From positions 42,470 to 106,469 of the forward strand of contig JBBTED010000027.1 in assembly GCA_038042445.1 (NCBI GenBank): a stretch of DNA of 64,000 nt, in the 5' to 3' direction. Source of the DNA: Candidatus Firestoneibacteriota bacterium. GTDB taxonomy: Bacteria > Oederibacteriota > D2-FULL-39-29 > JBBTED01. How positions within the stretch are numbered: the stretch's first letter is position 1; each line of letters begins with the position of its first letter. Below the pieces are notes generated by a model. It was not told where the DNA came from. It saw only the letters and a list, made by a program, of their open reading frames with translations, and made no database searches. The position numbers were made by a program, and so were the translations under genes. This document shows positions 5,213 to 30,725 of this stretch, one piece after another.

Positions 5213-5248
5213 AATCCCCCTTAGTCCCCCTTTTTCAAAGGGGGATTT
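5213..5248. repeat. C-rich/G-rich hairpin repeat (related copies near 23641-23675 and 42072-42108)
   Basis: aatcccccttagtccccctttttcaaagggggattt; supplies the PPLKKGD-stop end of the cytochrome ORF. Confidence 0.6.
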
Positions 5249-7086
5249 ATTATTTTTTCATTATCAATTTTTTTTCCTGTAATCCATTGCCAACTCATTG
5301 GATAGATTTCCGGGTCAAAAATTGTCCAGTAAAAATGCCAGATAATAATTGCAACAGTAGCAAGTATTGCTTCATAAAAATGAATTAGTGTGGCTAAATC
5401 AGTAATCCATAATGGCAGATATTTTAAAGTTATATTTTCAAATAAAAGCAAAATTCCTGTTACTATCATTATAATAGAACCCCATATAAGTGCCCAATAT
5501 TCAAATTTTTCCATATAATTGTACTCACGAAATTGTGGTTTTTCTTTACACAAACCAATATTATATCCAATAAATTTAAATGCATCAGTGATATCTTTGA
5601 ATACAGGAAATAATTGTGTTACTCTCTTTCTGCCTGCTTTTGTAAATACAAGATAAAAAACGTGGAATATTGCAAATAGAATAAATATAAATGCTGTCCA
5701 GTGATGAATTTCACTCCTTATTTGTGAACCTTCCTCTAAAATTCTAAATGGATATGCCCACCAACTTTCAGGATATTTTACTGCAAAACCAGTATAAGCA
5801 AGTACTGAAAAACAAATCAAAAGTCCAAAGTGTTGTATTCTTTCATTAATACTCATTCTTTTATCATTCGCTTCTTTTTTACATTTTTTGTAATGTTCTC
5901 GTAAATTTTTTAAAAAATGAATTGCATTATGAAAAATCATACCACCAATTGTTAAAAGTATTAATGATATATAGAATATTTTAACATAATATATAATTAA
6001 ATTTTTTTCTTTTGAATCTTTAGTATGTATAGAACCTGAAGCAAGCATTGCACCTGCACCAGGATGACATTTTCCACACGTCTTCGGTAGATTTACTTTA
6101 TTTATGGAGGAAAGTTTATTATCTGACATCAAAATATCATGAAATCCATGACAAGAAGCACAATTAGCTACTCTTAAATCACCAGCTTTACCTGATAATC
6201 CATGAAATGAATCTAAATATGTTTGAACTCTATCTGCAGGCAATCCAAATTTCGTAACAATTTTTTCAGAAGCATGACACCCTGAACAGGTTTTGGTTAT
6301 TGCACCAATATATACAGATGATTCTTTGTCTTTAACAGCACGTATTGTATGTTCACCATGACAATCAATACATACTGGTGCTTCTTTAACACCTGCTTTT
6401 GAAACCACACCATGAATACTTCTTTCATATACTTTAAATACATTTTCATGACATTTACTACAAGTAACTGGAATATTCTTATGAAATATTTTTGACATAG
6501 AGTTTGATGAACCATATATGTTGTGAGACCCATGACAATCAGTACATACTGCTGCATTCATTTCTCCATTTTTCAATGCCTGGCCATGAATACTGTTTCT
6601 ATAAGATTTATATGGTTCCTTTTGTGTAAGGTGAAATTTTTCCATTTTGCCTGAATTCCCATGGCAGTGTGTACAAGTATCAGGAATGTTTTTATGATAA
6701 ACCGGAGATTTTGGATTTCTGCTATTCAAAATAGTATGTGTGCTACCATGACAAGCTTTACAAGTAGCTGCTTCATTTATACCTTTAAGCTGTGCTTTTC
6801 CATGATCACTATTTAAATAGATTTCTGATTCTATTCTATGGCAGTCTTTACAAGATACAGGTTTTAATTTTTCATTATGCGGCAATTCCTTAATATCACT
6901 ATGGCAAGAAATACACAGATTATTTCCATGTATGGATTTTCCAAAAGCATTTGAATTAACCAATGGTGCGCCACTTTCTTTATCTTTATGACACACCATA
7001 CATTCTTCATTTTCCTGTGCATATAGCAACGAAGATACAAATATAAAAAAAATAAAAATCTTTGTTTTCACCCGAAAATCTCCCAT
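5221..7086 (-). CDS. Multiheme cytochrome c (11 CxxCH) fused to a C-terminal cytochrome b (FdnI/CbcL-like)
   Basis: Signal peptide after ATG at 7086 (the ORF-track extension crosses a REP); ERIQH, IHH, YMEKFEYWALIWG, IHFYEA..WHFY. Confidence 0.9.
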   Translation of the reverse strand: MGDFRVKTKIFIFFIFVSSLLYAQENEECMVCHKDKESGAPLVNSNAFGKSIHGNNLCISCHSDIKELPHNEKLKPVSCKDCHRIESEIYLNSDHGKAQLKGINEAATCKACHGSTHTILNSRNPKSPVYHKNIPDTCTHCHGNSGKMEKFHLTQKEPYKSYRNSIHGQALKNGEMNAAVCTDCHGSHNIYGSSNSMSKIFHKNIPVTCSKCHENVFKVYERSIHGVVSKAGVKEAPVCIDCHGEHTIRAVKDKESSVYIGAITKTCSGCHASEKIVTKFGLPADRVQTYLDSFHGLSGKAGDLRVANCASCHGFHDILMSDNKLSSINKVNLPKTCGKCHPGAGAMLASGSIHTKDSKEKNLIIYYVKIFYISLILLTIGGMIFHNAIHFLKNLREHYKKCKKEANDKRMSINERIQHFGLLICFSVLAYTGFAVKYPESWWAYPFRILEEGSQIRSEIHHWTAFIFILFAIFHVFYLVFTKAGRKRVTQLFPVFKDITDAFKFIGYNIGLCKEKPQFREYNYMEKFEYWALIWGSIIMIVTGILLLFENITLKYLPLWITDLATLIHFYEAILATVAIIIWHFYWTIFDPEIYPMSWQWITGKKIDNEKIINPPLKKGD

Positions 7087-7098
7087 TTTATTGTTTCT

Positions 7099-7154
7099 GT
7101 AGCTGCAAAGCAATAGCTTTGCTTTTTTTTTGCAGAGCTTCGCTCTGCCGCTAC
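7099..7154. repeat. GTAG-type REP doublet
   Basis: gtagctgcaaagc-aata-gctttgc ... gcagagc-ttc-gctctgccgctac; same family as the MITE cargo. Confidence 0.8.
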
Positions 7155-7195
7155 ACTGCCAACTGACCAAAATTTACAACTATAAATATTCTTAC

Positions 7196-9940
7196 TTATT
7201 TATATGCAAATAGCATAGCATAAATAATCCATATTACCACGCTAAAACCAAGGACTAAAGCAGTCCAACCAAATATACGTATTGCCCTTATAACAATCGG
7301 CTGATATGGTTCTACAAGATATTTTTCAAGTTCTCCACTTGCAACTAATTCTTCATATTCTTCAGGTCTGTCATTTTTTAATTCTTCAACAGAAACACGA
7401 CCTGTAAAAATACTGGTATCCATTGGAAATTTTTCCGGACGCCAGTGTGTATTAAAAAAATGCACTGTAAATATAAACCCTGCGGCAAGTAACGCCTCAT
7501 CACTATGAATAATAGTTGCAACATTTATAAACCAACCTGGCAAAAACTGTGTAAAAAACTCTGAAAACCACAGAAAAACACCTGTAAAACCAATAATAGC
7601 AATTCCCCAGAATACTGCAAAGTAATCAAATTTTTCCCAATATGTCCACCTTCCATATCTTGGCCTTTTTCCCAAACCCAAAAACCACTTTATGGATCCA
7701 ATTAAATCCAGTAAATCTTTTTTTGTAGGAAGCATAGTGTTTGTTCCTGATAACAAATTTTTCCATGTTTTAAATTCTTTACGTTTTTTTTGAAAAATAT
7801 TAAAAAGATGCGTAAAGAAAATAATAAAAAGTAAAATTGCGGCAACACGATGTATATAACCTGCTGTTTCAAAACCACCGAGAAAATGCGATACAATTGA
7901 TGACCATTTTGTATATGAGAATTTTAATGTCATACCTGTAAATGCCAGACTTATAAAACTCACAATCATTGTAATGTGTAAAATTCGTTCTAAACGTGAA
8001 AACCTCACAATCTGTTTTTCTGTTGAATATATATCTGCTTTTGGAAATTCCTTTTTATTTTTCATAGAACGTGAAAACCATAAAAGCGTATGAACACCAC
8101 TAAAAAAGAAAGTGGTGACAAGAAGAGTTGTCATCCCCCAAAAAACCCAGAAAAGATACGGATATTTTTTAGGGTCATGATGTGTTGCATGTGTTAAATA
8201 TCCTGCAAAACGTCTATTTGCACCTGAATGACATTTCTGACAAGTTTGGACAATATTCTTACGGCTTAAGTGCGAGTTTGAATCAACAACAGATAAAATA
8301 TCATGTGCCCCATGACAATCATAACATTTAGCTGTCTTTGTATAACCCAATTTCGAAATCTTGCCATGATATGTATCAAAATATGTTTTGGCAATTTCCT
8401 CATGGCATTTTCCACACACATTCATAATATTAAGCTTAAAACCATCTTCTCCTGCCCGCCTAATAGTATGAGCAGTATGACAATCCTTACACACAGGTAA
8501 TTCCTTGTCTGTTTTATTATGCAATGGGGAATGAACACTCTGGACAAATTGTTCGTAGACACCATAATGACAACGCCCACATGTTTCAGCAACCTTGTCT
8601 TTATGAATACTTGACCCAATATCACTATGTGGAAGTTCATGATGAGCTGTATGGCAATCCGAACAAGTTGCAGTAACAAGCAACCCACTTTTAAGAAGTC
8701 CCTTACCGTGAATACTCTCAGTGTAATTTTCAACAATTCTATGTTCTGTGCCAGTATATCGGATAGCTGATTTTTGTCCTGTTCTATGACACTTACCACA
8801 AAGATTTGGAACATTTAAAGGAAATATAGGTGATTTCGAATTTGTTTTTCCCATGATACCATGCGTTCCATGACATTCTTTGCAATTTGGAACATTTGGA
8901 TCATTTTTAGCAAATAATTTTCCATGGATGCTATCTTTATATTCCTCAACAACTTCAGCATGACAATTTCCACAATCAACTTTTGTTTTTATACTTTCAC
9001 AAGCACGATATTTAGAAGGATTCACATTTGAATGGCATTTACTGCAGGCAATTTTTGTGTGTTTAGAAGAAGTTAATTCCTGATAATTTACATAAAGAGA
9101 ATGTCCATCTCTTGATGCTTTTAAATCCTGTTTTGAGTGACATTTTAGACAATCCTTATCAGCCATTCCCTCTTCATAAAAAACCTTACGCACTTTATGT
9201 GGCTGATGGCAATCTACACAAGCGGGTAAAACAGAATCCTCTTTTTCCCACAACTCACCTTTGATAATTTTTCTGTGTACATCTTCAATTTGCGTATGGC
9301 ATTTATAGCATGTTGAAGCAATATTTTTACGAGATATTGAAGAACGCAAATCAGTGTGAGGTAAAATAAAATGTGATGTATGACACGATGTGCAAGTGGC
9401 AGTAACTGACAAACCCTTTTTTAGCAATCCTTCTCCATGAATACTCTCAGAATAATTCTCAAGAATTTTTGACTGATGAATGTTGCGTTGACTTTGAACA
9501 GGAGCGCCTTCTTGATGACACTTTCCACAAACAAATGGCACTTTAATTGGTGATACTGCTGAGTTTTTATCCTTAACTTTTAATATATCGTGTGTTCCGT
9601 GACAATCTTGACAAAGCGGAGCCAATTTATCGCCTTTGGCAACTGCTTTTCCATGTAAGCTTTCAGAATATAATTTCTGTTGCTCTAAATGACAATTACC
9701 GCAACTAACTTTTAATGGTTTATCATGTGGAAAATCCTTCCCTTTTAGATCACTATGGCAGGAAATACATAGATTATTTTCATGTATAGATTTTTCAAAA
9801 ACATTTGAATTAACTAATGGTGCGCCACTTTCTTTATCTTTATGACACACCATACATTCTTCATTTTCCTGTGCCTGCAAAAACATTGGTACACAGCATA
9901 AAAGGAAAATTATACTTATTTTTTGTATTCGTGAGTTCAT
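7196..9940 (-). CDS. Large multiheme cytochrome c (19 CxxCH) fused to a C-terminal cytochrome b (CbcL-like)
   Basis: Signal peptide; 19 CxxCH counted; RILH, IHR, YWEKFDYFAVFWG, IHSDEA..VHFFNTH. Confidence 0.92.
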   Translation of the reverse strand: MNSRIQKISIIFLLCCVPMFLQAQENEECMVCHKDKESGAPLVNSNVFEKSIHENNLCISCHSDLKGKDFPHDKPLKVSCGNCHLEQQKLYSESLHGKAVAKGDKLAPLCQDCHGTHDILKVKDKNSAVSPIKVPFVCGKCHQEGAPVQSQRNIHQSKILENYSESIHGEGLLKKGLSVTATCTSCHTSHFILPHTDLRSSISRKNIASTCYKCHTQIEDVHRKIIKGELWEKEDSVLPACVDCHQPHKVRKVFYEEGMADKDCLKCHSKQDLKASRDGHSLYVNYQELTSSKHTKIACSKCHSNVNPSKYRACESIKTKVDCGNCHAEVVEEYKDSIHGKLFAKNDPNVPNCKECHGTHGIMGKTNSKSPIFPLNVPNLCGKCHRTGQKSAIRYTGTEHRIVENYTESIHGKGLLKSGLLVTATCSDCHTAHHELPHSDIGSSIHKDKVAETCGRCHYGVYEQFVQSVHSPLHNKTDKELPVCKDCHTAHTIRRAGEDGFKLNIMNVCGKCHEEIAKTYFDTYHGKISKLGYTKTAKCYDCHGAHDILSVVDSNSHLSRKNIVQTCQKCHSGANRRFAGYLTHATHHDPKKYPYLFWVFWGMTTLLVTTFFFSGVHTLLWFSRSMKNKKEFPKADIYSTEKQIVRFSRLERILHITMIVSFISLAFTGMTLKFSYTKWSSIVSHFLGGFETAGYIHRVAAILLFIIFFTHLFNIFQKKRKEFKTWKNLLSGTNTMLPTKKDLLDLIGSIKWFLGLGKRPRYGRWTYWEKFDYFAVFWGIAIIGFTGVFLWFSEFFTQFLPGWFINVATIIHSDEALLAAGFIFTVHFFNTHWRPEKFPMDTSIFTGRVSVEELKNDRPEEYEELVASGELEKYLVEPYQPIVIRAIRIFGWTALVLGFSVVIWIIYAMLFAYK

Positions 9941-9989
9941 TTGATTATATTAACTATATATATCTATCATAACAGATAACAGATTTTAC

Positions 9990-10168
9990 GTAGGGCAAGG
10001 CTTTACCTTGCGAATGGCAAACCTAAAGAGCCTGTGTCAAAACCCTATTTTGTCATCCTGAGGCAGTAGCCGAAGGATCTCATTTTTAAAGGGCTTTAAA
10101 GCGAGATTCTTCGGCTACTGCCTCAGAATGACACCTTTTTTGGTACAAGTTCTAAAGGTTTGCCCTAC
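9990..10168. mobile_element. Three-layer nested repeat: REP doublet > TIR element (10028-10152) > GTCA-type hairpin pair (10052-10132)
   Basis: Hairpin gcaaacc-taaa-ggtttgc is split with TAAA duplicated; imperfect TIRs gagcctgtgtcaaaa / ttttggtacaagttc; inner gtcatcctgaggcagtagccgaaggatct...agattcttcggctactgcctcagaatgac. Confidence 0.75.
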
Positions 10169-10182
10169 AATGACTTTTCCTA

Positions 10183-12327
10183 TTATGTTTTATTTTTAAA
10201 AGCTAAAATATAAACATAAAAAGTTGCGCCCTTTCCTGTTTCAGATTCTACATCTATATGCCCTTCATGCCTTCTTATTATAGAATAAACTGTTGCAAGT
10301 CCTAAACCACTACCTCTTGATTTTGTTGTCCAATAAGGATCAAATATTTTTGTTATATTCTCTTTTGCTATGCCAACTCCCTCATCTTTTATCGCTATTT
10401 TTACATATTCACCATCTTTAATTAATAAATCCCCTTTAATGTCAATATTCTCTGCATTAATCTGCACCACACCGCCTTCAGGCATAGATTCTACTGCATT
10501 TATAATTAAATTATTAATTACCTGAATCATCTGCCCTTCATCAAATTCAACTGACCATAGATTATCAGAAATTATAGTATCAAATTTTACCTTAGAATTT
10601 CTTGTCAAATATTTAACTGTATCATTTAATATTTTTGAAATTGACAAAACTTTTTTTATTGATTCTCCGCCCCTAGCAAAACTTGATAATTGTTTCGTTA
10701 ATTCTTTTGCCTGCAAAGACGCTTTTTCAGCATCAGCCAGTAATTCACCCAATTCCCCAGGATTTTGCAAATGCCTCTTCGCTAAAGAAATATTCCCTAA
10801 AATTGAAGTCAACATATTATTAAAATCATGGGCAATACCACCTGCAAAAACTCCTATTGATTCTACTTTTTGTGACTTTACAAACTCTATTTCTATTTTT
10901 TTCTGCTGTTCTTTTATTAAAAGAACATTTTGAATGTTAGATATCGCCGCTTCAAGTGAATCTTTTAATAAATTTAACCCATTAAGTTCATCTTTATAAA
11001 ACATATCCCCAGAAAATTTATTACCTAATAAAATACAACCTTTTATTCCCCCATTTTTATTTACAGCAATCATTACCGCGTAATCCCCTGCATTCATTCC
11101 ATCAAATATTTTCATTTCTGAGTCAGTAAGCACTCTTCCTATTTCTATTTTTTTCTGAAGTTCATCTCTTATTATTATTTCTTCTTTACCCTCAAAACAA
11201 TTCAAAAATACACTTTGATTGCTTTTTGTCTCCTTCATTGTATAAGATTTTTTATTTGAATCTTTACATTCAAATTCTCCTTCTATTATTGCTCCTGTTT
11301 TTCCAAATATTCTGATTGAACCTTTTTCTACAAGAAAAATCTGAGGTATTTCCTTTAATAAATATTCAACAAGTTGGTTTTCATCTAATATACTTCTAAT
11401 CTTTGATGTAAGCAATTGAATTGATTTAACAAAATCAATATTTTTTGCATAAAACTTTGCATTTATAAATGTACGAATTTTGCCACTAAATACTTTCAGG
11501 AATATAAAAGTAACAAATGTAATACAAGCTAAAGTTGGAAGGAAAAATGTCCTATGAAAATGAGAGGAAGGAAGTAGTATAAATACTATAATTATATTTA
11601 GTATTACCGTAGATGATAATATTGCCAAATATTCCAATATTTTTCGCAATAAATATTGCAGGTTCACCATTTTTATGCGGATAAATGCATAAGCAATAGC
11701 TATAGTGTAAAATAAACTTGTTAAGTTCCCAAATGGATAAAATTCTATACCAAATGTAGGCAAAAAATTTGTTACTCCTCCCAATGCGCCTAAAAATGTT
11801 CCCCAGAAAATATATTTATATTGTTGTCTTTTTTGTCCTGAAGAAATCTTTATTAATTTAAAGATTAAAACTTGTGCATAGGTTATGTAAAAAGAGAAAA
11901 CTACACTATATATCAAATCCCCTATATTTACCAATGGATAATATCCCCAGAAATATTTTTTTAACTCATTACTTAAAATATTGCATTTAAAGTGTAACAA
12001 TAAAAATAAAAAACTAAAAAAATAAGCAAGATAAAGCAAAGTTTTATTTAATTTGGTTTTTATGTTTGCAACATTATAAACAAAATGAAAGGTTGTAGAA
12101 AAAATAAATATTGTTCCTGAAATTAATATATGATTATATTTAACTGCTAACAAATATTCAGAAGTATTATACAACAAAAAGAAACCTAAATTCCATACAG
12201 CCATTGATAAATTCCAGAAAATATAAGCCAGAGTAATATTTTTATTTCTATTATTAATTAATATAAGTAATATTAGAGATATATTAAGAATAAATGCTAC
12301 TAATGGCTGTATTGAATAAATTGTCAT
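10183..12327 (-). CDS. Sensor histidine kinase with N-terminal 7TM-type membrane region
   Basis: Multi-TM N-terminus; H-box GIAHDFNN, N-box QVINNLIINA, DEGVG, IFDPY, GSGLGL; no receiver domain. Confidence 0.9.
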   Translation of the reverse strand: MTIYSIQPLVAFILNISLILLILINNRNKNITLAYIFWNLSMAVWNLGFFLLYNTSEYLLAVKYNHILISGTIFIFSTTFHFVYNVANIKTKLNKTLLYLAYFFSFLFLLLHFKCNILSNELKKYFWGYYPLVNIGDLIYSVVFSFYITYAQVLIFKLIKISSGQKRQQYKYIFWGTFLGALGGVTNFLPTFGIEFYPFGNLTSLFYTIAIAYAFIRIKMVNLQYLLRKILEYLAILSSTVILNIIIVFILLPSSHFHRTFFLPTLACITFVTFIFLKVFSGKIRTFINAKFYAKNIDFVKSIQLLTSKIRSILDENQLVEYLLKEIPQIFLVEKGSIRIFGKTGAIIEGEFECKDSNKKSYTMKETKSNQSVFLNCFEGKEEIIIRDELQKKIEIGRVLTDSEMKIFDGMNAGDYAVMIAVNKNGGIKGCILLGNKFSGDMFYKDELNGLNLLKDSLEAAISNIQNVLLIKEQQKKIEIEFVKSQKVESIGVFAGGIAHDFNNMLTSILGNISLAKRHLQNPGELGELLADAEKASLQAKELTKQLSSFARGGESIKKVLSISKILNDTVKYLTRNSKVKFDTIISDNLWSVEFDEGQMIQVINNLIINAVESMPEGGVVQINAENIDIKGDLLIKDGEYVKIAIKDEGVGIAKENITKIFDPYWTTKSRGSGLGLATVYSIIRRHEGHIDVESETGKGATFYVYILAFKNKT

Positions 12328-13580
12328 AAGTATTTTTTTAATAATAATACTGCATTTACACCTGAAAATCCAGAGGAATTTTGCATTGCAATATTTACTT
12401 CTTTTTTTCTTGCTTTATTTGGCACATAATCCAAATCACATTCTGGGTCAGGATATTCATAATTTATAGTTGGTGGAATAATATTATCTTCTATTATAAG
12501 ACAATTTGTTATAGTCTGAAAAGCGCCTGCTGGTCCTAAAGAATGGCCTATCATTGATTTTAAACCACTTATTGGCACTTTATATGCATATTCTCCAAAT
12601 GCTTTTTTAATAGCAAGTGTTTCTGTTTTTTCATTTAATTGTGTAGAACTTCCATGTGCCTGTATATAATCAACATTTTCAGGTTTAATATTTGCATTTT
12701 TCATTGCTATTTTCATTGCTCTTGCTGATTGCACCCCATCTGGAGCAGGAGCTGTCATATGATACGCATTACAAGTAGTTCCATAACCAATAACTTCAGC
12801 ATATATATGTGCATTTCTTTTTATAGCATGTTCTAATTCTTCCATAATAACTATACCTGAGCCTTCTCCCATAACAAATCCATCTCTTTCTTTATCAAAA
12901 GGTCTTGAAGCTTTTTCCGGCTCATTATTTCTCGTAGACAATGCTTTTATTGCGCAAAATGAATACATTGTTAAAGGAGCAATTGGAGCCTCTGTTCCAC
13001 CTGCAAAAATAATATCTGCAATTCCTTGTTGTATAGATGTATATGCATTACCTATAGCTACTGTTCCTGCTGTGCATCCTGTTGATATTACATTGTTATA
13101 TCCAACTATGCCTAAGTCTATTGAAATCTGGCCAACTGAAGCGCAACAAAATACTGCAATCGTAGTAAAAGTGCTTACTCCTCTTAAACCATTCAATCTA
13201 TAGTTTGTAAATTGTTTCTCTGCAAAATCCATTCCGCTTACTGCAATACCAATAACTAACCCAATTCTTTCAGGATCTTCGTTTTTTATATTTAATTTTG
13301 CATCTATTAAAGCCAATTTAGCAGCACCCATAGCATATTGTGTAGATAAATCAGTTCTTCTAATTTGCTTTGGATCCATATATTTTTTGGGATCAAAATT
13401 ATCTATTTCAGCAGCTATTTGCGAAGGATGTTGGGAAGCATCAAATCTCGTAATTTTGCGTGTCCAAGATTTACCTGCTATTGTATTTTCCCAGAATTCC
13501 TGTTTTCCTATACCACTTGGAGCAACAACTCCAAGCCCTGTTATAACAACTCGTCTTTTATTTTCTTTAGTATCATTCAT
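12324..13580 (-). CDS. Beta-ketoacyl synthase, FabF / type II PKS KS-alpha-like
   Basis: RRVVITGLGVVAP; catalytic STGCTAG, AHGSST and KSMIGHSLG; likely start ATG 13580. Confidence 0.88.
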   Translation of the reverse strand: MNDTKENKRRVVITGLGVVAPSGIGKQEFWENTIAGKSWTRKITRFDASQHPSQIAAEIDNFDPKKYMDPKQIRRTDLSTQYAMGAAKLALIDAKLNIKNEDPERIGLVIGIAVSGMDFAEKQFTNYRLNGLRGVSTFTTIAVFCCASVGQISIDLGIVGYNNVISTGCTAGTVAIGNAYTSIQQGIADIIFAGGTEAPIAPLTMYSFCAIKALSTRNNEPEKASRPFDKERDGFVMGEGSGIVIMEELEHAIKRNAHIYAEVIGYGTTCNAYHMTAPAPDGVQSARAMKIAMKNANIKPENVDYIQAHGSSTQLNEKTETLAIKKAFGEYAYKVPISGLKSMIGHSLGPAGAFQTITNCLIIEDNIIPPTINYEYPDPECDLDYVPNKARKKEVNIAMQNSSGFSGVNAVLLLKKYL

Positions 13581-13652
13581 TTTATAATAAATTAAGTCGT
13601 TCTGATTCGCCTGTAACAAATTAGCCAAAATAAATTTCGCTACGCAATAATT

Positions 13653-13865
13653 GTCATCCTGAGCGTTAGTGAAGGATCTCGTCTTGTAACAGATTAGCCA
13701 TTCTAAAAATACACATTATTATTGTAGCTGCAGAGCAAAGCTCTGCTAAAAAACAGCAAAGCTTTCGCTTTGCGGCTACATAAACCATACAAAATCCATT
13801 AAATCTTAGAATGGCCAACCTATTACCTCGTCTTTATATAGATTCTTTATTTCATTCAGAGTGAC
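13653..13865. repeat. GTCA-type hairpin repeat interrupted by a MITE
   Basis: gtcatcctgagcgttagtgaaggatct ... agattctttatttcattcagagtgac. Confidence 0.7.
13686..13826. mobile_element. MITE copy 1 (141 bp)
   Basis: TIRs gtaacagattagccattctaa / ttagaatggccaacctattac; 8-bp TSD ctcgtctt. Confidence 0.9.
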
Positions 13866-13903
13866 AAAAAAGGTTGTTGAAAAACTTCCACTCCATTTGC
13901 ATC

Positions 13904-14488
13904 TTACACATCTTTAACACCAGTTTTAAATATTGGAATAGGGAAAAATGCCCATACTTCTTTTTTGTATTTTAGATATTCTTCACCAAATTTTTTAATT
14001 AGTGCTTTTTCCTCAAAAATAAATCTTAAAATAATAAGTGGAACAAATGTAATTACAATCAAAAAAAATGAATAATAAGCATTTGCTATTAAAGGTAGAC
14101 CCAAAATTTCACAAAATAAAAACAAATAATGTGGATGCCTCATATATTTATAAGGACCTTTTTTAATTAAAGGATGGACATCTCTTATTTCTATTTCTAC
14201 AGTCCAGTATTTATCTAAAGTCTTTATTGCCCAAATAGAAAGCATCCAACCCAGAATATACAAAACAAAAGCAATACCAGAAATATAATAATTTATATTT
14301 CTTTCAATAATAAAAAATTCTATAGGCGAAACAAAAATTGGTAATATATAAAAAATATATATTGATTTAGTTATCCATTGAAATGAAATTTCCCCTTCTA
14401 TTTTTTTGATTTTATGTATTTTAGAAGTAATAAAGAACTTATTTATAAATACAAGAATTGCGAAAATTAAATAAATATTTTCAAACAT
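13904..14488 (-). CDS. Isoprenylcysteine carboxyl methyltransferase (ICMT/PEMT) family membrane methyltransferase
   Basis: HPLIKKGPYKYMRHPHY, RFIFEEKAL..KFGEEY. Confidence 0.88.
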   Translation of the reverse strand: MFENIYLIFAILVFINKFFITSKIHKIKKIEGEISFQWITKSIYIFYILPIFVSPIEFFIIERNINYYISGIAFVLYILGWMLSIWAIKTLDKYWTVEIEIRDVHPLIKKGPYKYMRHPHYLFLFCEILGLPLIANAYYSFFLIVITFVPLIILRFIFEEKALIKKFGEEYLKYKKEVWAFFPIPIFKTGVKDV

Positions 14489-14497
14489 TTAGTTTAT

Positions 14498-15865
14498 TTA
14501 TTTTGGAGCTTTTGCCTTTGGATAAGAATAAGCTACATAATGCGAAGATAAATTTGCTATTATAGGAAATATTCTCTCATTTAACCTCACATTATTTTCA
14601 TTCCAATTATTATACAATTTCATAAGCCTGTTAAAAACAGTATTTAATTCAAATAGTTCCTGAAAAGCCCAGCAATAACCATTTTCCAAATCCTTTTCAG
14701 ACATATTTTTTGGTTTATAACATACATGACAACAATCAAAATATGCCCAACTTTTATTTAATATTCTTTTTTCTTTTTCAAGTTTAAAAAATAATTGTGT
14801 TCCAGGCAAAGGTGTAAGAATATTTACAAAACAATTGCCAATACCAGAATCTTTTATAAAATTAACTGTTCTTTCAAATACATTTATATCATCATCATCA
14901 AACCCAAATATAAATGAACCAAGAATAATAATACCTTTTGATTGAATTTTTCCTATTGCTTTATAATATAAATCAACTTTGTATTGATTGCCTTTATGAA
15001 CTTCTGCTAAATTTTTTTGGTTAATTGATTCAAACCCTATTAAAATACTTAAACAACCACTTGCTACTAATAAATCAAGCAATTCATCATCTTCATATAT
15101 CTCAATGGTTGCCTGTATTGTATAAGGTGTTTTAAGTGGTATCATTGCTTTTAAAAGTTCTTTTGCTCTTTTTTTATCAACTAAAAAATTATCATCACAA
15201 AAGAAAATCAATTTTTTATCAATTGAATTTACAAATTCTATTTCTTTTATTACTTTTTCAACTGATTTACATCTGTATTTTTTACCAAAATATGTCTGAA
15301 CAGAACAAAATTCGCAATTATAAGGACATCCGCGTGTTGTTTGAAGTATATGAAAATTATATTTTTTATTATTTAATAAATCGTATCTGGGAATAGGAGA
15401 TAAATTTATATCAGGTTTTTCAGGAGATTCGTATATTTTTTTTAGATTATTATTTTTAAAATCTTCTATTACCTGCTTCCATATATTTTCTGCTTCTCCT
15501 TTTACAATAGTATCTGCATGTAAAAGCCCTTCTTCTGGAAGCATAGAAGTATGAATTCCACCAATTACAACTTGGACATTTCTTTTTCTGAATTCATCAG
15601 CAATTTCATAGGCACGAGTAGCCAAAGATGTATTGGCACTTATTCCAACTAAATCAACTTTTTCATCAAAGTTAATATCCTCTATGTTTTCATCTTTGAT
15701 AATTATATTTACATCTTCTGGTGTAAGCGCTGCTATAACAGGTATTGAAGCTATCATAGCACTGTATTTTTTTACTCCAAAAACAATTGATTGAAATTGT
15801 CCTCCCCAGTTTTCTAATTCTGTATCAGCAGTTTTTCGTTTGGGAACAATCAGCTTTAAAATCAC
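14498..15865 (-). CDS. B12-binding radical SAM protein
   Basis: N-terminal B12-binding region (VVIGGIHTS); TTRGCPYNCEFC; LTPLPGT. Confidence 0.9.
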   Translation of the reverse strand: MILKLIVPKRKTADTELENWGGQFQSIVFGVKKYSAMIASIPVIAALTPEDVNIIIKDENIEDINFDEKVDLVGISANTSLATRAYEIADEFRKRNVQVVIGGIHTSMLPEEGLLHADTIVKGEAENIWKQVIEDFKNNNLKKIYESPEKPDINLSPIPRYDLLNNKKYNFHILQTTRGCPYNCEFCSVQTYFGKKYRCKSVEKVIKEIEFVNSIDKKLIFFCDDNFLVDKKRAKELLKAMIPLKTPYTIQATIEIYEDDELLDLLVASGCLSILIGFESINQKNLAEVHKGNQYKVDLYYKAIGKIQSKGIIILGSFIFGFDDDDINVFERTVNFIKDSGIGNCFVNILTPLPGTQLFFKLEKEKRILNKSWAYFDCCHVCYKPKNMSEKDLENGYCWAFQELFELNTVFNRLMKLYNNWNENNVRLNERIFPIIANLSSHYVAYSYPKAKAPK

Positions 15866-16455
15866 TCTACATCCTTTCTTGCTATTGCAATTTTAGGAAA
15901 AAATCTATTCACCTCTTGTTTATAACTTATATATTTTTCTTTTAATGTTTCAAGCATTGCTTTTTCTTCTATGATTGAACGTAAAATAATTATTGGAAAA
16001 TATGTAATTAAAAATATAGTGAGAAAATAATAGGAATTTGGAATCAAAGTAATTCCTAATACTTCAAGTAAGTGAAAAACATTATTTGGGTGTCTCATAT
16101 ATTTATATGGACCATTTTTTATTAACTCGTGATTATCTCGTATTTCAATATCCACACTCCAGTATTTCCCAAGCGAATTAAATGCCCACTGCCTTCCAAA
16201 AAGACCTATAGAATATAGCATAATTCCTGCACAACTTACAAACAAATTCATATTTCTTTTTGCAACAAAATATTCTATAAAACTACCAAAAAGTATAATA
16301 AGGTAGACATAAAATATATATTTGGATGTCCATTTAGCAATAACCTTGCCTTTGAGTTTTTCGGATTTCAAAGTTTTTTTTCTGATTGTGGACCTTATAT
16401 GAAATGTAACTGCAAAAAATATAATATAAAATATTGTGAAATAAATGTTATTCAT
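15862..16455 (-). CDS. ICMT/PEMT family membrane methyltransferase (second copy)
   Basis: HELIKNGPYKYMRHPN, RSIIEEKAM. Confidence 0.88.
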   Translation of the reverse strand: MNNIYFTIFYIIFFAVTFHIRSTIRKKTLKSEKLKGKVIAKWTSKYIFYVYLIILFGSFIEYFVAKRNMNLFVSCAGIMLYSIGLFGRQWAFNSLGKYWSVDIEIRDNHELIKNGPYKYMRHPNNVFHLLEVLGITLIPNSYYFLTIFLITYFPIIILRSIIEEKAMLETLKEKYISYKQEVNRFFPKIAIARKDVE

Positions 16456-16472
16456 TATTTTTAATAGTACTC

Positions 16473-16595
16473 AATCTATGTCATAATGGTAGCCGCAGGC
16501 TTTAGCCTGCGAAAAAATTGTAAAAAATACCGCAAGCTAAAGCTTGCGACTACCACTACAGAGAAAATCGCAAAAAACGAATTATGACACAGTCT
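16473..16595. mobile_element. MITE-like element wrapping a REP doublet
   Basis: Imperfect TIRs aatctatgtcataat / attatgacacagtct around ggtagccgcaggc...gcgactacc; inverted partial copy at 29170-29260. Confidence 0.6.
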
Positions 16596-17031
16596 AAATG
16601 ACTCCTTCCAATTTGTTCTTTAAACCAAGCAAAACATTTCTTGTAAGCTTGTCAATTGCGGGTTTTGCTATGAATTTGGATAAAATCCAGCCTAAAACAG
16701 GTGGATTTAAGCTTAATCTGTGTGTTATTGTTAATTTCGTGCCTTCAGGAACTTCTTCAAATAGCCACTCGATTTTCATTCCTTTTAATCTGCCTTCAAT
16801 TTGTTCAAATTCTATTGTTTTATTGATATTAAATTTTACTTTTGACTTCCACTTCATTATTTTACCTTTTATTTCTGCAACTCTTTCAACAATCATTCCA
16901 CCATCTTCTGTTTTTATAAGCTTTGATGGTTTATACCCCGGTATATAGGTATGAGAGTTTTCAATATCCTGTGCAATTTTATATACTTCAGGTAAATTTC
17001 TTTTTATTATAATTGTATCTTTTGTAATCAT
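16594..17031 (-). CDS. SRPBCC/START polyketide cyclase-aromatase family protein
   Basis: IEFEQIEGRLKGMKIEWLF, GTKLTITH; ATG 17031 overlaps the cyclase TGA. Confidence 0.82.
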   Translation of the reverse strand: MITKDTIIIKRNLPEVYKIAQDIENSHTYIPGYKPSKLIKTEDGGMIVERVAEIKGKIMKWKSKVKFNINKTIEFEQIEGRLKGMKIEWLFEEVPEGTKLTITHRLSLNPPVLGWILSKFIAKPAIDKLTRNVLLGLKNKLEGVI

Positions 17032-17795
17032 ATTATTGCTACCACTCTGCACCAGCCGGCACTTGCTTTTTCAATTTTAACAGGAAAACAAATTATTTTA
17101 AAGCCGAAAGGTTTGGGAATCTTATCCAAATTAGCAAGTTTTTCTATATGACAGTATTCAATTTTTTTCCCAACAAAATGTGCAGGAAATATAAAAGTAT
17201 TATCTTTGGTTTTAAGAAAATCCTGCAACATATTAATTGCAGGTCTGTCAAAACCCCATGCATCTATCCCAAGTATTTTAACACCTTGTTTTAAAATATA
17301 TTCTGTCCCTTCGGCACTCATTCCAGAATGTGCTGAAAAATAATTATCTTTTTCAAAATATTTGTCTGCACCTGTCATTATCAATACAATATCATAGGGC
17401 TTTATTTTATAGTTTATTTTATCTAATGCTTTTTGCACATCTATCTGCAAAATTGCATCACCTTGTTGTTTATGCCTAAAATCAAGAAGGACACCATCAT
17501 TATAACACCATTCTAAAGGAATCTCATCAACTGTTATTGCTTTTTTACCATTAATCTGCGAAGTAAAATGCCAAGGAGCATCAAGATGTGTTCCTGAATG
17601 TGTATCTAATATTATTTCTTCATTTGCAAGACCTCTACCATCAGGAAAATCTTTTTCAGTTATTTGAGTTTTAAAAATATTACTCGCAGCAGCACTAAGA
17701 TTTTTTGCACCCTCTATATGATTAAAATATTTTATTTTGGGTGACTCAGGCTCCGGTGTATTATTTTTAATAGGTAAACTCAAGTCAATAAGCAT
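17028..17795 (-). CDS. Cyclase family protein (kynurenine formamidase fold, DpsY/OxyN-like)
   Basis: LIDLS, HSGTHLDAPWH metal motif, GIDAWGFD, HIEKLANL. Confidence 0.88.
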   Translation of the reverse strand: MLIDLSLPIKNNTPEPESPKIKYFNHIEGAKNLSAAASNIFKTQITEKDFPDGRGLANEEIILDTHSGTHLDAPWHFTSQINGKKAITVDEIPLEWCYNDGVLLDFRHKQQGDAILQIDVQKALDKINYKIKPYDIVLIMTGADKYFEKDNYFSAHSGMSAEGTEYILKQGVKILGIDAWGFDRPAINMLQDFLKTKDNTFIFPAHFVGKKIEYCHIEKLANLDKIPKPFGFKIICFPVKIEKASAGWCRVVAII

Positions 17796-17803
17796 TTTAT
17801 TTT

Positions 17804-18208
17804 TTACAAATCTTTTTTATGAACCATAAATGGTTTTTGACCTACAAACTCACCATTTGCAAATATCCTGAATGCATATTTGCCTGGCTCATTAAAAACT
17901 ATGCCGTGCAAATTAAATACTAATTCATAACTTGCCAGTTTATCAACTACATCAATTTCAGGTATTTCTGTCTTAGCAACAACTATATCTGTATCAAAAT
18001 TAACGAATTCTAAAGCAAATTTATATATTCCCAATGCATCAGTAAATTTTACAAACACACTCAAAGATGGATGTGCGCAGGGAAAAGAAGATGCTGAGAT
18101 ATTTTCAAATAATCCAATTAAACTCTTCTTATTTGTTCCAACTTCAGTAATTACTGTATCGCATATAAGCATTGCATTCAAATGCGGTTTTAGATTTGAA
18201 GTATTCAT
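17804..18208 (-). CDS. Hypothetical beta-sandwich protein (DUF6941-like)
   Basis: LICD..I....KKSLIGLF, F.EPGKY pattern. Confidence 0.6.
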   Translation of the reverse strand: MNTSNLKPHLNAMLICDTVITEVGTNKKSLIGLFENISASSFPCAHPSLSVFVKFTDALGIYKFALEFVNFDTDIVVAKTEIPEIDVVDKLASYELVFNLHGIVFNEPGKYAFRIFANGEFVGQKPFMVHKKDL

Positions 18209-18240
18209 ATTTTTACCTTCTCACTACTGTTACATTTAAA

Positions 18241-18379
18241 GTAACATTAGCCATTCTAAGAATATACATTATTATTGTAGCTGCAGAGCAAAGCTCTGCT
18301 AAAAACCAGCAAAGCTTTCGCTTTGCGGCTACATAAACTATACAAAATCCATTAAATATTAGAATGGCTAACCTATTAC
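18241..18379. mobile_element. MITE copy 2 (139 bp)
   Basis: Same TIRs and REP cargo as copy 1; 8-bp TSD catttaaa. Confidence 0.9.
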
Positions 18380-18426
18380 CATTTAAAAGACTTTGGTTCC
18401 CCGATTACTCGGGAATGACAGAATTT

Positions 18427-19914
18427 TTACTTTACAACTGCTGGAGTTGATTTTTGTATTATCTCTGCACCTTTTAGCACATCTATTGCTCGTAGGACAA
18501 CAGGATCTTCAGACAAAGCAGTAACCTGCGCAGCATCGTCATTTTTCAATAAGCGAACAATTTCCATTTTAATAGAACGACTTATAAAAGATTTACCTTT
18601 TGATGCATCATCATCACTAATAGTATATCCATTTGCCTTTGCAAAACTAATAAAATCCTGAATAATTTTTTCGCTAATTTTAATATCAACAGTAATATCT
18701 TTATGTTCTTCTATATATTTTTTTGCATAATGGATAAAATGTTCATAGTATTGTAATTTCCATACAGATTCCGGTATAAATGGTTCATCTTCTACTAGAA
18801 CATCCGGAGCTATTCCTTTTTCATGAATAAGTCTTCCACTTGGCGTATAATAATATGCAGTTGTAAGTTTTAACCCAGCTCCATTATTCATCGGATATAT
18901 ACTTTGCACAGAACCTTTGCCAAAAGTTTGGCTTCCTATTATTACTCCTCTTCCACTATCTTGTATTACACCTGTTACAATTTCAGAAGCACTTGCACTA
19001 CCTTTATTAACCAATACAACCAATGGCTCAGGATGAGGTGCAGCACCACTATCTGCATAATAATTTCTGTTTTGTTCTTTAATTCTACCTTTTGTATAAA
19101 CTATTAATTTACCATCACCAATAAATTTACAAGAAACATCAACTGCAGAAGAAAGTAATCCACCAGGATTACCACGTAAATCTAAAATTAATGCTTTAAC
19201 TTTTGAAGTTTCTAAATCCTTTAATGCTTTTTCCAAATCTGCACTTGTTTTCTCCATAAAACTTCGGACACGAACATATCCAATATCGCCATTTAAAACA
19301 TAAGACTGAACACTTATCATTTTAATTGTTTCTCTTGTAACTATAATATCAAATGGTTCTTTAACACTTTCACGTAATATTGTTATAGTAACTTGAGTCC
19401 CTCTTGGACCTCTTAATTTTTTTACAGCCTCGTTTATTGTAATATCTTTTGTAGTTTCTCCATTTATTTTTATTATTTTATCTCCTGATTTTACACCTGC
19501 TTTATACGCAGGAGTTCCTTCAATAGGAGATACTACAGTAAGCACATCACTTCGTATTGATATTTCTATTCCAAGTCCTTCAAAAGAACCACCTGTATCT
19601 GTTTGAAGCTCTTTATATTCCTCTGCATCCATAAACTGGCTATGTGGATCAAGTGTAGAAACCATACCCTTAATTGCTCCCTGAATTAATTTTTGCGAAT
19701 CAGCTTTGTCAACATCTACATAAGATTGCTGTATTTGTGAAAGAACATCTACAAACGGAACCATATCCTGATATGTCTTTTCTATAATTTCTCTTGGTTT
19801 ATCCTGACCAATTGCACCAATTGAAAATCCAACCAGAATAGCTAATATCCCTATACCACTCACTTTGTTCGGGTATAGGGCATGCCCTATTACTTTTAAT
19901 ATTCTTTTATACAT
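18427..19914 (-). CDS. ctpA: Carboxyl-terminal processing protease (S41)
   Basis: LDPHS, PDZ GLGI, DLRGNPGG, SASASEI, TFGKGSVQ. Confidence 0.95.
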   Translation of the reverse strand: MYKRILKVIGHALYPNKVSGIGILAILVGFSIGAIGQDKPREIIEKTYQDMVPFVDVLSQIQQSYVDVDKADSQKLIQGAIKGMVSTLDPHSQFMDAEEYKELQTDTGGSFEGLGIEISIRSDVLTVVSPIEGTPAYKAGVKSGDKIIKINGETTKDITINEAVKKLRGPRGTQVTITILRESVKEPFDIIVTRETIKMISVQSYVLNGDIGYVRVRSFMEKTSADLEKALKDLETSKVKALILDLRGNPGGLLSSAVDVSCKFIGDGKLIVYTKGRIKEQNRNYYADSGAAPHPEPLVVLVNKGSASASEIVTGVIQDSGRGVIIGSQTFGKGSVQSIYPMNNGAGLKLTTAYYYTPSGRLIHEKGIAPDVLVEDEPFIPESVWKLQYYEHFIHYAKKYIEEHKDITVDIKISEKIIQDFISFAKANGYTISDDDASKGKSFISRSIKMEIVRLLKNDDAAQVTALSEDPVVLRAIDVLKGAEIIQKSTPAVVK

Positions 19915-25552: not shown

Positions 25553-25603
25553 ATTTCATTAATTAACATATATTAAAAAACCCAAAATGTAAAATGAAAA
25601 ATA

Positions 25604-25744
25604 ATAATAGGTTAGCCATTCTAAGATTTAATGGATTTTGTATGATTTATGTAGCCGCAAAGCGAAAGCTTTGCTGTTTTTTAGCAGAGCTTTGCTCTGC
25701 AGCTACAATAATAACGTCTATTTTTAGAATGGCTAATCTGTTAC
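25604..25744. mobile_element. MITE copy 3 (141 bp, inverted)
   Basis: Reverse complement of copy 1; 8-bp TSD gaaaaata. Confidence 0.9.
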
Positions 25745-29530: not shown

Positions 29531-30725
29531 TTATGCTACACTAAATTTTCTGTTTATGATAACACCTTGCTTTTTTAATTGATTTTGCAGTTTTTCTACA
29601 TTTATATCTGAAAAATTTTCGTTATTAGAAGATAATATTGCTGCTGCTGTACCTGCTGCCTCACCTGTTACTGCACAAGTTGGAATCGCTCTTGTAATAT
29701 CCCATGCTGTCGTCGTAACTGAAATACATCTTCCTGCAGTTATTAAATTATCTATTTTGGCTCCTATAAGACATCTATACGGAATATAAAATATAGGACC
29801 TTCTTTTCGCCAATCTCCTGTCATTCCAATTGAATCATAAAAGAATTTTTTATTGTCTTTTTCATCAAGTTCAAAAACTCCTTGTAACCTTCGTGTCATC
29901 CTGAATTGAGGAATAGAAGGAATAAGAATAGGATAGATGTTTTTATTATTCTTTTTCAATTCCAGAATTTCTTTAAGAATTAATTTTCTGCCAGCAATAT
30001 TCATTTCTGTAACATCTTCATAATTATCACCTGAAAATGTTTTCGTTGTTGCAGGAAGTTTTGTATGTATAAAGTGGATCACCAACTACACGTAATTCAA
30101 TTTTCCCATTATTATATAAAAAAAACCATCCACTTTTCCTATTAGTATTAAGTGAAACTGTTTTTTCACCTGCTTTATAACAAACATCTGCATCACCCGA
30201 AGTATCAATAACTGTTTTACATAATACTGCATTTCTTCCACTTTTGTTTTCAACAATAAGCGCTTTTATTTTAGTGTTTTTAATTACCACATCACAAAAT
30301 CGTGTATCATATAGTATTTTGATTTTGTTTTTCAAAATTTGTTCTTCCATTGTAAGTATAAAAGAAGCAGGGTTGAATTTAACCTCATATCTGTGTTTTT
30401 TTATTCTCTTTTTATTCCCATTTTTCTGCCAGCAATCTGGAATTTTGTCATATCCATCTTTAACTGACAATTTCAATAATTCCTCACCTATTCCTGATAT
30501 AACCTGATTTCCCATACCATCGCACAAAGGCAGGTAAAAAACTACAAGACCAAGTGTTGCAAGCCCACCTAATGCATTTTCTTTTTCTATTACACAAACT
30601 TTTGCATTATTTCTACTGGCTGCAAGTGCTGCTGATACACCAGCAATGCCACCGCCTACAACAACAACATCATATTCACCTATAATATTTATTTTTTTTG
30701 ATACCTCAATTAAAGTTTTTTGCAT
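29531..30725 (-). pseudogene. FAD-dependent oxidoreductase, frameshifted near 30065
   Basis: N-half (DVVVVGGGIAG, IDTSGDAD) and C-half (IPYRCL, NLITAGRCIS) are in different frames, with a TACA-TACA duplication at the junction. Confidence 0.75.

Follow-up and report, generated by a model that had tools for sequence, protein, structure and literature searches.

The window analysed here, a 64,000-nucleotide (nt) stretch of contig JBBTED010000027.1 of a Candidatus Firestoneibacteriota bacterium, carries a row of seven genes encoding a PF04199 cyclase-family protein, an SRPBCC/START-fold protein, an ICMT/PEMT-family membrane methyltransferase (ICMT1), a B12-binding (class B) radical SAM enzyme (rSAM), a second methyltransferase of the same family (ICMT2), a FabF-type ketosynthase (KS) and a multi-transmembrane (TM) histidine kinase (Table 1). 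An initial annotation had read this row as a type II polyketide synthase (PKS)-like set that makes a methylated aromatic or phenolic-lipid product, sensed by the adjacent kinase. We favor, tentatively and with slightly less than even confidence, a different reading, namely that the row encodes lipid-tailoring enzymes together with a membrane sensor of their own and not a polyketide synthase. Judging from the sequences, the seven-helix kinase probably detects a lipid made by the neighboring enzymes. The cassette is rare and is present in several uncultivated groundwater phyla.

Gene row and protein families

The initial annotation had named the same seven co-oriented families; the open reading frames and Pfam matches bear this out and place all seven genes on the minus strand. 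The three gene overlaps that it had listed are likewise confirmed by direct reading: ATGA at 12324-12327 between the KS and kinase genes, GTGA at 15862-15865 between the ICMT1 and rSAM genes, and ATGA between the cyclase and SRPBCC genes, given an SRPBCC start at ATG 17031 (the mechanical alternative, GTG 17052, would give a 25-nt overlap). The KS most likely starts at ATG 13580 rather than at TTG 13628. The row is not seamless, being interrupted by gaps of 139 and 323 nt, and the DUF6941 gene immediately upstream, which had gone unmentioned, may be its first gene. The single-sequence AF2 model of the DUF6941 protein is poor (pLDDT 58.5, beta strands), and the term DUF6941 was not found in the literature searched. 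The source assembly (labeled G000; 181 contigs, 2.8 Mb, 90% complete) holds the window on contig C27, where the G+C content is about 30% and the context is chromosomal, with ftsEX, an M23 peptidase, ctpA, dnaX, recR, multiheme cytochromes and sugar-use genes.

Table 1. Features in and around the cassette, with positions in the window
Feature	Positions	Strand	Remarks
DUF6941 protein	17804..18208	-	134 aa; PF22091 76.2 bits; 8 nt upstream of cyclase
PF04199 cyclase-family protein	17028..17795	-	255 aa; PF04199 120.9 bits
SRPBCC/START-fold protein	16594..17031 (ATG start)	-	PF03364 51.7 bits
Terminator-like hairpin and T-run	16529..16550	-	in the SRPBCC-ICMT1 gap, 139 nt
ICMT/PEMT-family membrane methyltransferase 1 (ICMT1)	15862..16455	-	197 aa; PF04140 56.1 bits
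B12-binding (class B) radical SAM	14498..15865	-	455 aa; PF04055 64.8, PF02310 37.5, DUF4070 25.2 bits
ICMT/PEMT-family membrane methyltransferase 2 (ICMT2)	13904..14488	-	194 aa; PF04140 66.1 bits
MITE-like repeat, 140 nt	13686..13827	.	in the ICMT2-KS gap; hairpin and T-run 13773-13756
FabF-type KS paralog	12324..13580	-	418 aa from ATG 13580; TIGR03150 523.5 bits
Multi-TM HisKA_7TM-like histidine kinase	10183..12327	-	714 aa; GAF-like middle, HisKA, HATPase
MITE-like repeat, second copy	18246..18384	.	in the 219-nt gap upstream of DUF6941; 96% identity
Palindromic repeat, 39-nt arms	10051..10133	.	just past the kinase stop

Against the FabF equivalog model TIGR03150, the score of the KS exceeds the cut-off of 493.75 bits, but it reaches only 243.7 bits against the polyketide KS model NF005490 (cut-off 445). 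Among solved structures, its 18 closest chains are all FabFs, headed by Bacillus subtilis FabF (4ls5, 445.9 bits), and the actinorhodin KS-alpha (1tqy) ranks 19th with 342.9 bits, so that the KS-alpha-like character initially ascribed to the protein is not borne out. The protein does have the intact Cys-His-His triad and the STGCTAG motif described at the outset, and the alignment shows the catalytic Cys-His-His and Lys retained in ISTGC, AHGSS and KSMIGHS; the STGC motif may resemble that of KS-alpha. Around the active-site Cys, the cassette KSs read ISTGC and the housekeeping copies TAC, and the GSGIGG and NSFGFGGHN loops of the cassette KSs also depart from those of housekeeping FabF.

In the whole assembly, KS matches are confined to the window (C27), to contigs C19 and C29, which share a split housekeeping FabF, and to a 22.9-bit match on C122. 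The only two PF00550 acyl carrier proteins (ACPs) are acpP, in the fab operon on C19, and a gene adjoining acetate kinase on C160; the housekeeping fabD-fabG-acpP-fabF(-rnc) operon is itself split across C19 and C29. The window had been said to hold neither a chain-length factor (CLF) nor an ACP, which is confirmed; no CLF gene was found in the whole assembly, 90% complete as it is, nor any cluster ACP, and the contig of the window has no second KS or PP-binding gene. The window KS is 51-59% identical to the acpP-linked FabF of the same genome and 66% identical to the KS of the metagenome contig L038. In a tree of 22 rows, with the C29 fragment left out, these last two form a 100/100 clade outside the 12-row clade (98/97) of the housekeeping FabFs of the class. 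The possibility, raised at the outset, that the KS groups with housekeeping FabF is thus correct as to family, by model score, and incorrect as to the tree. By both measures, the window KS is a dedicated FabF-type paralog and not the housekeeping FabF.

The PF04199 protein retains the HxGTHxDxPxH motif (HSGTHLDAPWH) and is probably a metal-dependent hydrolase or cyclase. Its closest solved relatives are isatin hydrolases (best 4j0n, E 1.1e-6), and it scores 30.4 bits against the arylformamidase model TIGR03035 (cut-off 223). A 51% identical homolog (G103:C43, locus L107, 9247-10020) lies next after rpe at the end of a priA-def-fmt-rsmB-rpe row, and part of the subfamily may therefore have a housekeeping role. 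The SRPBCC protein is probably a carrier of a hydrophobic ligand; its best solved relative is TTHA0849 (E 7e-7), and TcmN chains match weakly (E 0.1-0.19). The nearest relatives of the two proteins thus lend little support to a polyketide cyclase and an SRPBCC aromatase of the kind proposed at the outset. A type II PKS was accordingly rejected, given a KS above the FabF cut-off, no CLF, no cluster ACP and a TcmN match at E ~0.1, and with it the aromatic or phenolic product.

Both ICMTs exceed the PF04140 cut-off of 24 and have TM-like segments in hydropathy plots. In alignment A1, their RHP and EE motifs (R121, H122, P123, E163 and E164) are invariant. ICMT1, for which the solved relative is Ma-ICMT (4a2n, E 1.5e-14), is 53% identical to protein P0320, whose contig equals that of cyclase P0004 in length, and 44% identical to ICMT2, and both window ICMTs stay below the isoprenylcysteine O-methyltransferase equivalog NF040696 (66.7 and 81.6 bits; cut-off 160). 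ICMT domains also occur in fusions among ICMT2 relatives, joined to a class I O-methyltransferase with a plant-type dimerization domain (P0350) or to a PilZ c-di-GMP-binding domain (P0438 and P0440). A BioC/BioH-like route, consisting of carboxyl methylation, elongation and ester hydrolysis, was considered and dropped, since enzymes of the ICMT type sit in the membrane and use lipophilic substrates.

The rSAM has the CxxxCxxC motif (CPYNCEFC at residue 180) and a B12-binding domain match above the PF02310 cut-off of 32.1 bits, as expected of a cobalamin-type class B enzyme. It falls below every named equivalog (bits/cut-off): HpnJ 113.9/577.6, BchE 109.9/481, PhpK 103.3/600, TIGR04072 86.9/360 and HpnR 65.5/650. 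With the window rSAM as query, 27 radical SAM matches were obtained in the 2.8-Mb assembly, and contigs C2 and C18 hold several of them. Elsewhere, proteins 35-42% identical to the window rSAM form tandem arrays of three to four copies in KSB1, Thermoplasmatales and other metagenome-assembled genomes (MAGs; L017, L020, L059 and L014), one of which adjoins a GH3-family gene.

The TM-like segments of the kinase lie within residues 1-284. The initial annotation had called it a 7TM kinase, and a multi-TM histidine kinase it is, although its own score against HisKA_7TM (PF16927), 19.2 bits, lies under the Pfam cut-off of 28.6; its ortholog P0246 reaches 29.6 bits. Full-length orthologs were limited to two, P0246 (49%) and P0247 (44%), both with a C-terminal REC domain. 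The window kinase has no REC domain, no REC remnant lies downstream of it in the window, and no response regulator (RR) gene is adjacent. Conservation between the window kinase and these orthologs is highest in the TM core (residues 1-230; 61% and 50% identity).

The miniature inverted-repeat transposable element (MITE)-like repeat occurs in three 140-nt copies of 94-97% identity, the third one inverted (25599-25744), each with a GCAAAGC-GAAA-GCTTTGC hairpin and, behind it, a T-run; the cassette is flanked or split by two of these copies. The 323-nt gap between the ICMT2 and KS genes contains one of these copies, and the same junction measures only 12 nt in L038, so that the larger gap in the window is explained by later insertion of the repeat. 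In the SRPBCC-ICMT1 gap, the hairpin is followed by a second GC-rich palindrome. Four terminator-like hairpin sites were observed in the region and 3.2 were expected, which is not above chance. A promoter scan of the three gaps in the window gave only weak sigma54 matches, all of them inside the MITE-like repeat, and no Rfam family was found in 9900-18500. Three other studies contributed four DNA runs whose contigs match the stretch piecemeal, over short lengths only, with depth peaking at the MITE-like repeats, and none of them bridges the repeat or shows its absence; one reported joint was disregarded for its 21-letter side. A look-up of sequencing runs listed no RNA run for the stretch. Directly downstream of the kinase gene, at 5221-7170 and 7196-9940, lie genes for two very large proteins, in each of which multiheme cytochrome c domains are joined to a cytochrome b561/Ni_hydr_CYTB membrane domain. 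Farther away, the overlapping reading frames 29531-30085 and 30027-30725 correspond to the C- and N-terminal halves of one FAD_oxidored protein (PF12831), which may reflect a frameshift or an assembly error.

Recurrence and divergence of the cassette

The metagenome contig L038 contains the rSAM (66%), the ICMT2 ortholog (56%) and the KS, with ICMT2 between the other two. In a search space of 5.8 billion proteins, only four of the best 120 rSAM relatives listed have at least 60% identity. The best of them, from an Elusimicrobiota genome (MAG 1), is MFH1369045.1 (69%), encoded on a 198,820-bp contig together with a cyclase (MFH1369042.1, 58%) that is three accession numbers away, the same spacing as in the window. 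A second Elusimicrobiota genome (MAG 2) carries, on a 23,582-bp contig, a cyclase (MFW6134215.1, 66%) and a full-length kinase (MFW6134209.1, 44%) that are six accession numbers apart, again as in the window. In two Desantisbacteria MAGs, an ICMT and a cyclase are separated by three accession numbers (MFH1096853-856 and MFH1897861-864). We did not find a window-type rSAM of at least 50% identity in the species-representative genome collection. More distant rSAM relatives (30-48%), from 31 genome and 54 metagenome loci, were set aside for their mixed contexts, which include mraZ/mraW, LpxC, MurJ and tandem rSAM arrays; of all the loci checked, L038 alone has the cassette. Pfam domains of neighbors were checked for 43 proteins at eight loci chosen from 10 with listed reading frames. 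Proteobacterial and metagenomic loci with a 41% match to the rSAM query (L010, a Proteobacteria MAG, and two metagenome contigs, L047 and L048) place a KS pair between two B12-rSAMs; with the window KS, the paired KSs share 41% and 32% identity, and in the alignment the second lacks the active-site Cys motif. These three loci look like "ladderane-type" lipid clusters.

A parallel cassette is found in three of the 12 other genomes of the class (G001, G007 and G011), which make up three of the four genomes of genus g2. It consists of an NtrC-type sigma54-dependent RR, a KS, one or two rSAMs, an ICMT and a HisKA_7TM-GAF kinase, in this order, and has neither a cyclase nor an SRPBCC gene; the kinase is the last gene in both cassette types. 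The KS of the parallel cassette, 47-48% identical to that of the window, is likewise above the FabF cut-off and forms a 100/100 clade of its own, and the ICMT has 37-41% identity. The B12-rSAM is most similar to the lipid C-methylase HpnR (243-247 bits, below the cut-off of 650). The kinases score 34-41 bits against HisKA_7TM; with 23% identity over the full length, the one at locus L143 (HisKA_7TM and GAF) aligns with the window kinase from end to end, as do its counterparts at the same identity. At both complete loci, near-consensus sigma54 promoters (TGGCAC-N5-TTGCT) lie between the regulator and KS genes (L143:7150-7292 and L144:10173-10300), matching at 10 and 11 of 12 positions. Downstream of ctpA, four class relatives share no synteny with the window. 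The recurrence of KS, B12-rSAM, ICMT and 7TM kinase in two gene orders is hard to explain by chance. The linkage of the kinase, which the initial annotation had left to be checked, thus recurs, both in MAG 2, by accession spacing, and in three class relatives.

When G001 is compared with G007, the identity of housekeeping proteins is about 82-98%, and two proteins of the cassette, the RR (89%) and the KS (91.5%), follow this baseline. The B12-rSAM (62.5%) and the ICMT (45.8%) do not, nor does the kinase over residues 1-180 (32-58%), which contrast with its residues 200-480 (70-98%). In addition, G001 has one rSAM more than G007. As far as the G011 contig reaches, its comparison with G001 and G007 gives a similar picture: RR 88-90%, KS 84-92% and the rSAM N-terminus 56-61%. 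The G011 KS gene (L140, G011:C111, 1134-2370) is read in two overlapping pieces in different frames, perhaps owing to a frameshift or sequencing error. The joint divergence of the tailoring enzymes and the kinase membrane domain fits a lipid product that is recognized by the kinase. That the kinase senses the product of the row, as first proposed, is thus favored by these relatives; the aromatic nature of that product is not.

Proposed pathway and rival explanations

In the pathway that we propose, the KS would most likely take acyl-ACP and malonyl-ACP from the fatty-acid synthase of the cell, because the cluster has no ACP of its own, and, with its altered substrate-gating loops, would yield a particular acyl or beta-ketoacyl chain. 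The cobalamin rSAM would then modify an unactivated carbon of this chain, most likely by C-methylation, and the two ICMT-type enzymes would O-methylate the chain at a carboxyl, hydroxyl or enol group. In the version found in the window, the PF04199 hydrolase/cyclase and the SRPBCC lipid-binding protein may process or carry the product, which the seven-helix domain of the kinase would recognize and report by phosphotransfer. In the class relatives, the sigma54 promoter and the adjacent NtrC-type regulator would drive the core genes, closing a self-controlled loop. By analogy, the product could be a diffusible signal, such as methyl 3-hydroxymyristate of Ralstonia, or a lipid that resides in the membrane. 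A bolder proposal is that these genes represent an undescribed class of lipid cell-cell signaling in anaerobic groundwater phyla (Firestonebacteria-like, Elusimicrobiota and Desantisbacteria), with "pherotypes" like those of agr and com in which strain-specific methyl decorations, added to a FabF-made scaffold by the cobalamin rSAM and the ICMT-type enzymes, are read by a HisKA_7TM kinase that co-varies with these enzymes in its first helices; this we consider conceivable but rather unlikely.

Several observations weigh against a tailoring cassette with its own sensor. The substrate and the binding of the product by the kinase are inferred, and each chemical step is deduced from the protein families; the rSAM reaches no curated equivalog, so that methylation is simply what enzymes of its class most often do. 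With 4769 proteins at E <= 1e-10, the cyclase belongs to a large subfamily that also occurs in housekeeping contexts. The hairpin and the MITE-borne hairpin break the row, and its three blocks may therefore be transcribed apart. Gene order in the MAGs is deduced from accession numbers alone; among 66 proteins at E <= 1e-40, no kinase ortholog comes from the MAG 1 contig, and among the best 120 rSAM relatives, none comes from the 23,582-bp contig of MAG 2. A further 98 genomes of the phylum have no rSAM of at least 50% identity and no cyclase at E <= 1e-20. Finally, the figures on co-divergence come from the relatives' sigma54-type cassette and not from the version of the window, to which that cassette is only 23-48% identical and from which it differs in gene order, and between G001 and G007 the catalytic part of the kinase (residues 520-620) has diverged too (48-65%).

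Among the alternatives, a membrane-homeostasis operon of the DesK/Des type is possible, if unlikely. Bulk lipids would be tailored, for instance by O2-free methyl branching of acyl chains or by head-group or carboxyl methylation, and the kinase would respond to a physical property of the bilayer rather than to a particular molecule and adjust expression accordingly. The enzyme types (a FabF paralog, a B12-rSAM and integral-membrane ICMT/PEMT proteins), the proximity of the relatives' B12-rSAM to HpnR, the mostly membrane-embedded kinase and the sigma54 promoter with its adjoining regulator in the relatives would all be in keeping with such a function. It leaves unexplained, however, why divergence between congeners should exceed the genome baseline three- to fivefold in the ICMT, the rSAM and the first five TM helices while the RR and KS remain at that baseline, and a patchy distribution (the sigma54 type in 3 of 12 class genomes, the window type in none of the 12) would be unusual for a core membrane function. 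Moreover, no squalene-hopene cyclase was found in G000, and hopanoids are therefore not the substrate. The hypervariable central block beside conserved flanks, where G001 and G007 differ in rSAM content, could instead mark a lipid of the envelope or cell surface whose variability is driven by phages or competitors, the kinase co-varying only because it sits in that lipid or is gated by it, with no intercellular signaling involved. Although this would suit the patchy distribution and the repeat elements at both ends of and inside the window row, we find it improbable: no transporter, flippase or glycosyltransferase was detected in the row by Pfam, both cassette types retain the kinase in last position, and its TM core is best conserved among window-type orthologs.

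A chance juxtaposition of three units (DUF6941-cyclase-SRPBCC, ICMT-rSAM-ICMT and KS-kinase) in a repeat-rich variable region appears less probable still. Two gaps do contain terminator-like hairpins and the MITE, the class relatives keep ftsX-envC-ctpA and differ thereafter, and the cyclase subfamily occurs elsewhere as well; but L038 joins ICMT2 to KS over 12 nt, in other phyla the cyclase is linked by accession spacing with the rSAM and with the kinase, and the KS, rSAM, ICMT and kinase come together again in the class relatives. As for a type II PKS-like set making a methylated aromatic or phenolic lipid, we regard it as exceedingly improbable. Its appeal lies in the Pfam names of PF04199 (cyclase) and PF03364 ("Polyketide_cyc"), in the ISTGC motif that sets the KS apart from the housekeeping TAC, and in the existence of an ICMT fused to a small-molecule O-methyltransferase (P0350). 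All this is outweighed by the KS scores and the rank of the actinorhodin KS-alpha, by the lack of a CLF or ACP in the window and of any further KS in the assembly beyond the housekeeping FabF and one 22.9-bit match, by the relationships of the SRPBCC protein and the cyclase given above, and by the parallel cassette, which does without both of these proteins.

Relation to known systems and significance

Reports on Ralstonia (PMC8578825, PMC11960443 and PMC10576176) describe the Phc system, in which the methyltransferase PhcB and the membrane histidine kinase PhcS serve an O-methylated, fatty-acid-derived signal (methyl 3-hydroxymyristate or methyl 3-hydroxypalmitate). The cassette as we interpret it is similar in pairing an O-methylated lipid made by a methyltransferase with a membrane histidine kinase. 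The methyltransferase and kinase genes of phcBSRQ are adjacent, and PhcB and PhcS co-vary with the signal type among strains. PhcB, however, is a soluble class I methyltransferase and not an ICMT-type membrane enzyme, Phc is not known to include a ketosynthase or a radical SAM enzyme, and PhcS, to our knowledge, is not a HisKA_7TM kinase. In agr of Staphylococcus and comQXPA of Bacillus, which use peptide signals, the genes that make or modify the signal are hypervariable as one block with the sensor portion of the receptor kinase, framed by conserved neighbors, much as the rSAM, ICMT and N-terminal kinase identities of the class relatives drop beside those of the RR and KS; the cassette differs in having no precursor peptide gene and in its lipid-type enzymes. 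As in a signal-synthase/receptor system, synthesis genes lie beside the kinase gene in the window, in the relatives and, by accession spacing, in MAG 2, and G001, G007 and G011 show the co-divergence typical of signal loci within their sigma54-type cassettes.

DesK-DesR/des of Bacillus subtilis offers a precedent for a multi-TM kinase that controls a lipid-modifying enzyme. Unlike the cassette kinase, DesK has five TM helices and no GAF domain and controls a single desaturase gene, and we know of no co-divergence of sensor and enzyme in that system. "Ladderane-type" clusters of anaerobes resemble the cassette in that a FabF-like KS adjoins cobalamin radical SAM genes, but the window has no dead-KS partner, ACP or FabZ, its rSAM stays far below TIGR04072, and it has ICMTs and a kinase. 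With type II PKSs, the row shares the KS triad and the SRPBCC and PF04199 proteins; it departs from them in the CLF and ACP, which are missing from the window, and in a KS that is FabF by model score and by its solved relatives. No description of this gene set was found in the literature searched.

The Pfam names "Polyketide_cyc" and "Cyclase" beside a KS thus do not imply a type II PKS, which corrects a tempting misannotation. If our reading is true, anaerobes would decorate fatty-acid-derived lipids by cobalamin radical chemistry and ICMT-type methylation under a sensor matched to the decoration. In the passages of the census and review literature that mention it, HisKA_7TM is merely listed. 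The cassette would provide this widespread sensor domain, for which we know of no ligand, with a first, testable ligand class. It would also point to lipid-based communication or self-recognition in candidate phyla of almost unknown biology.

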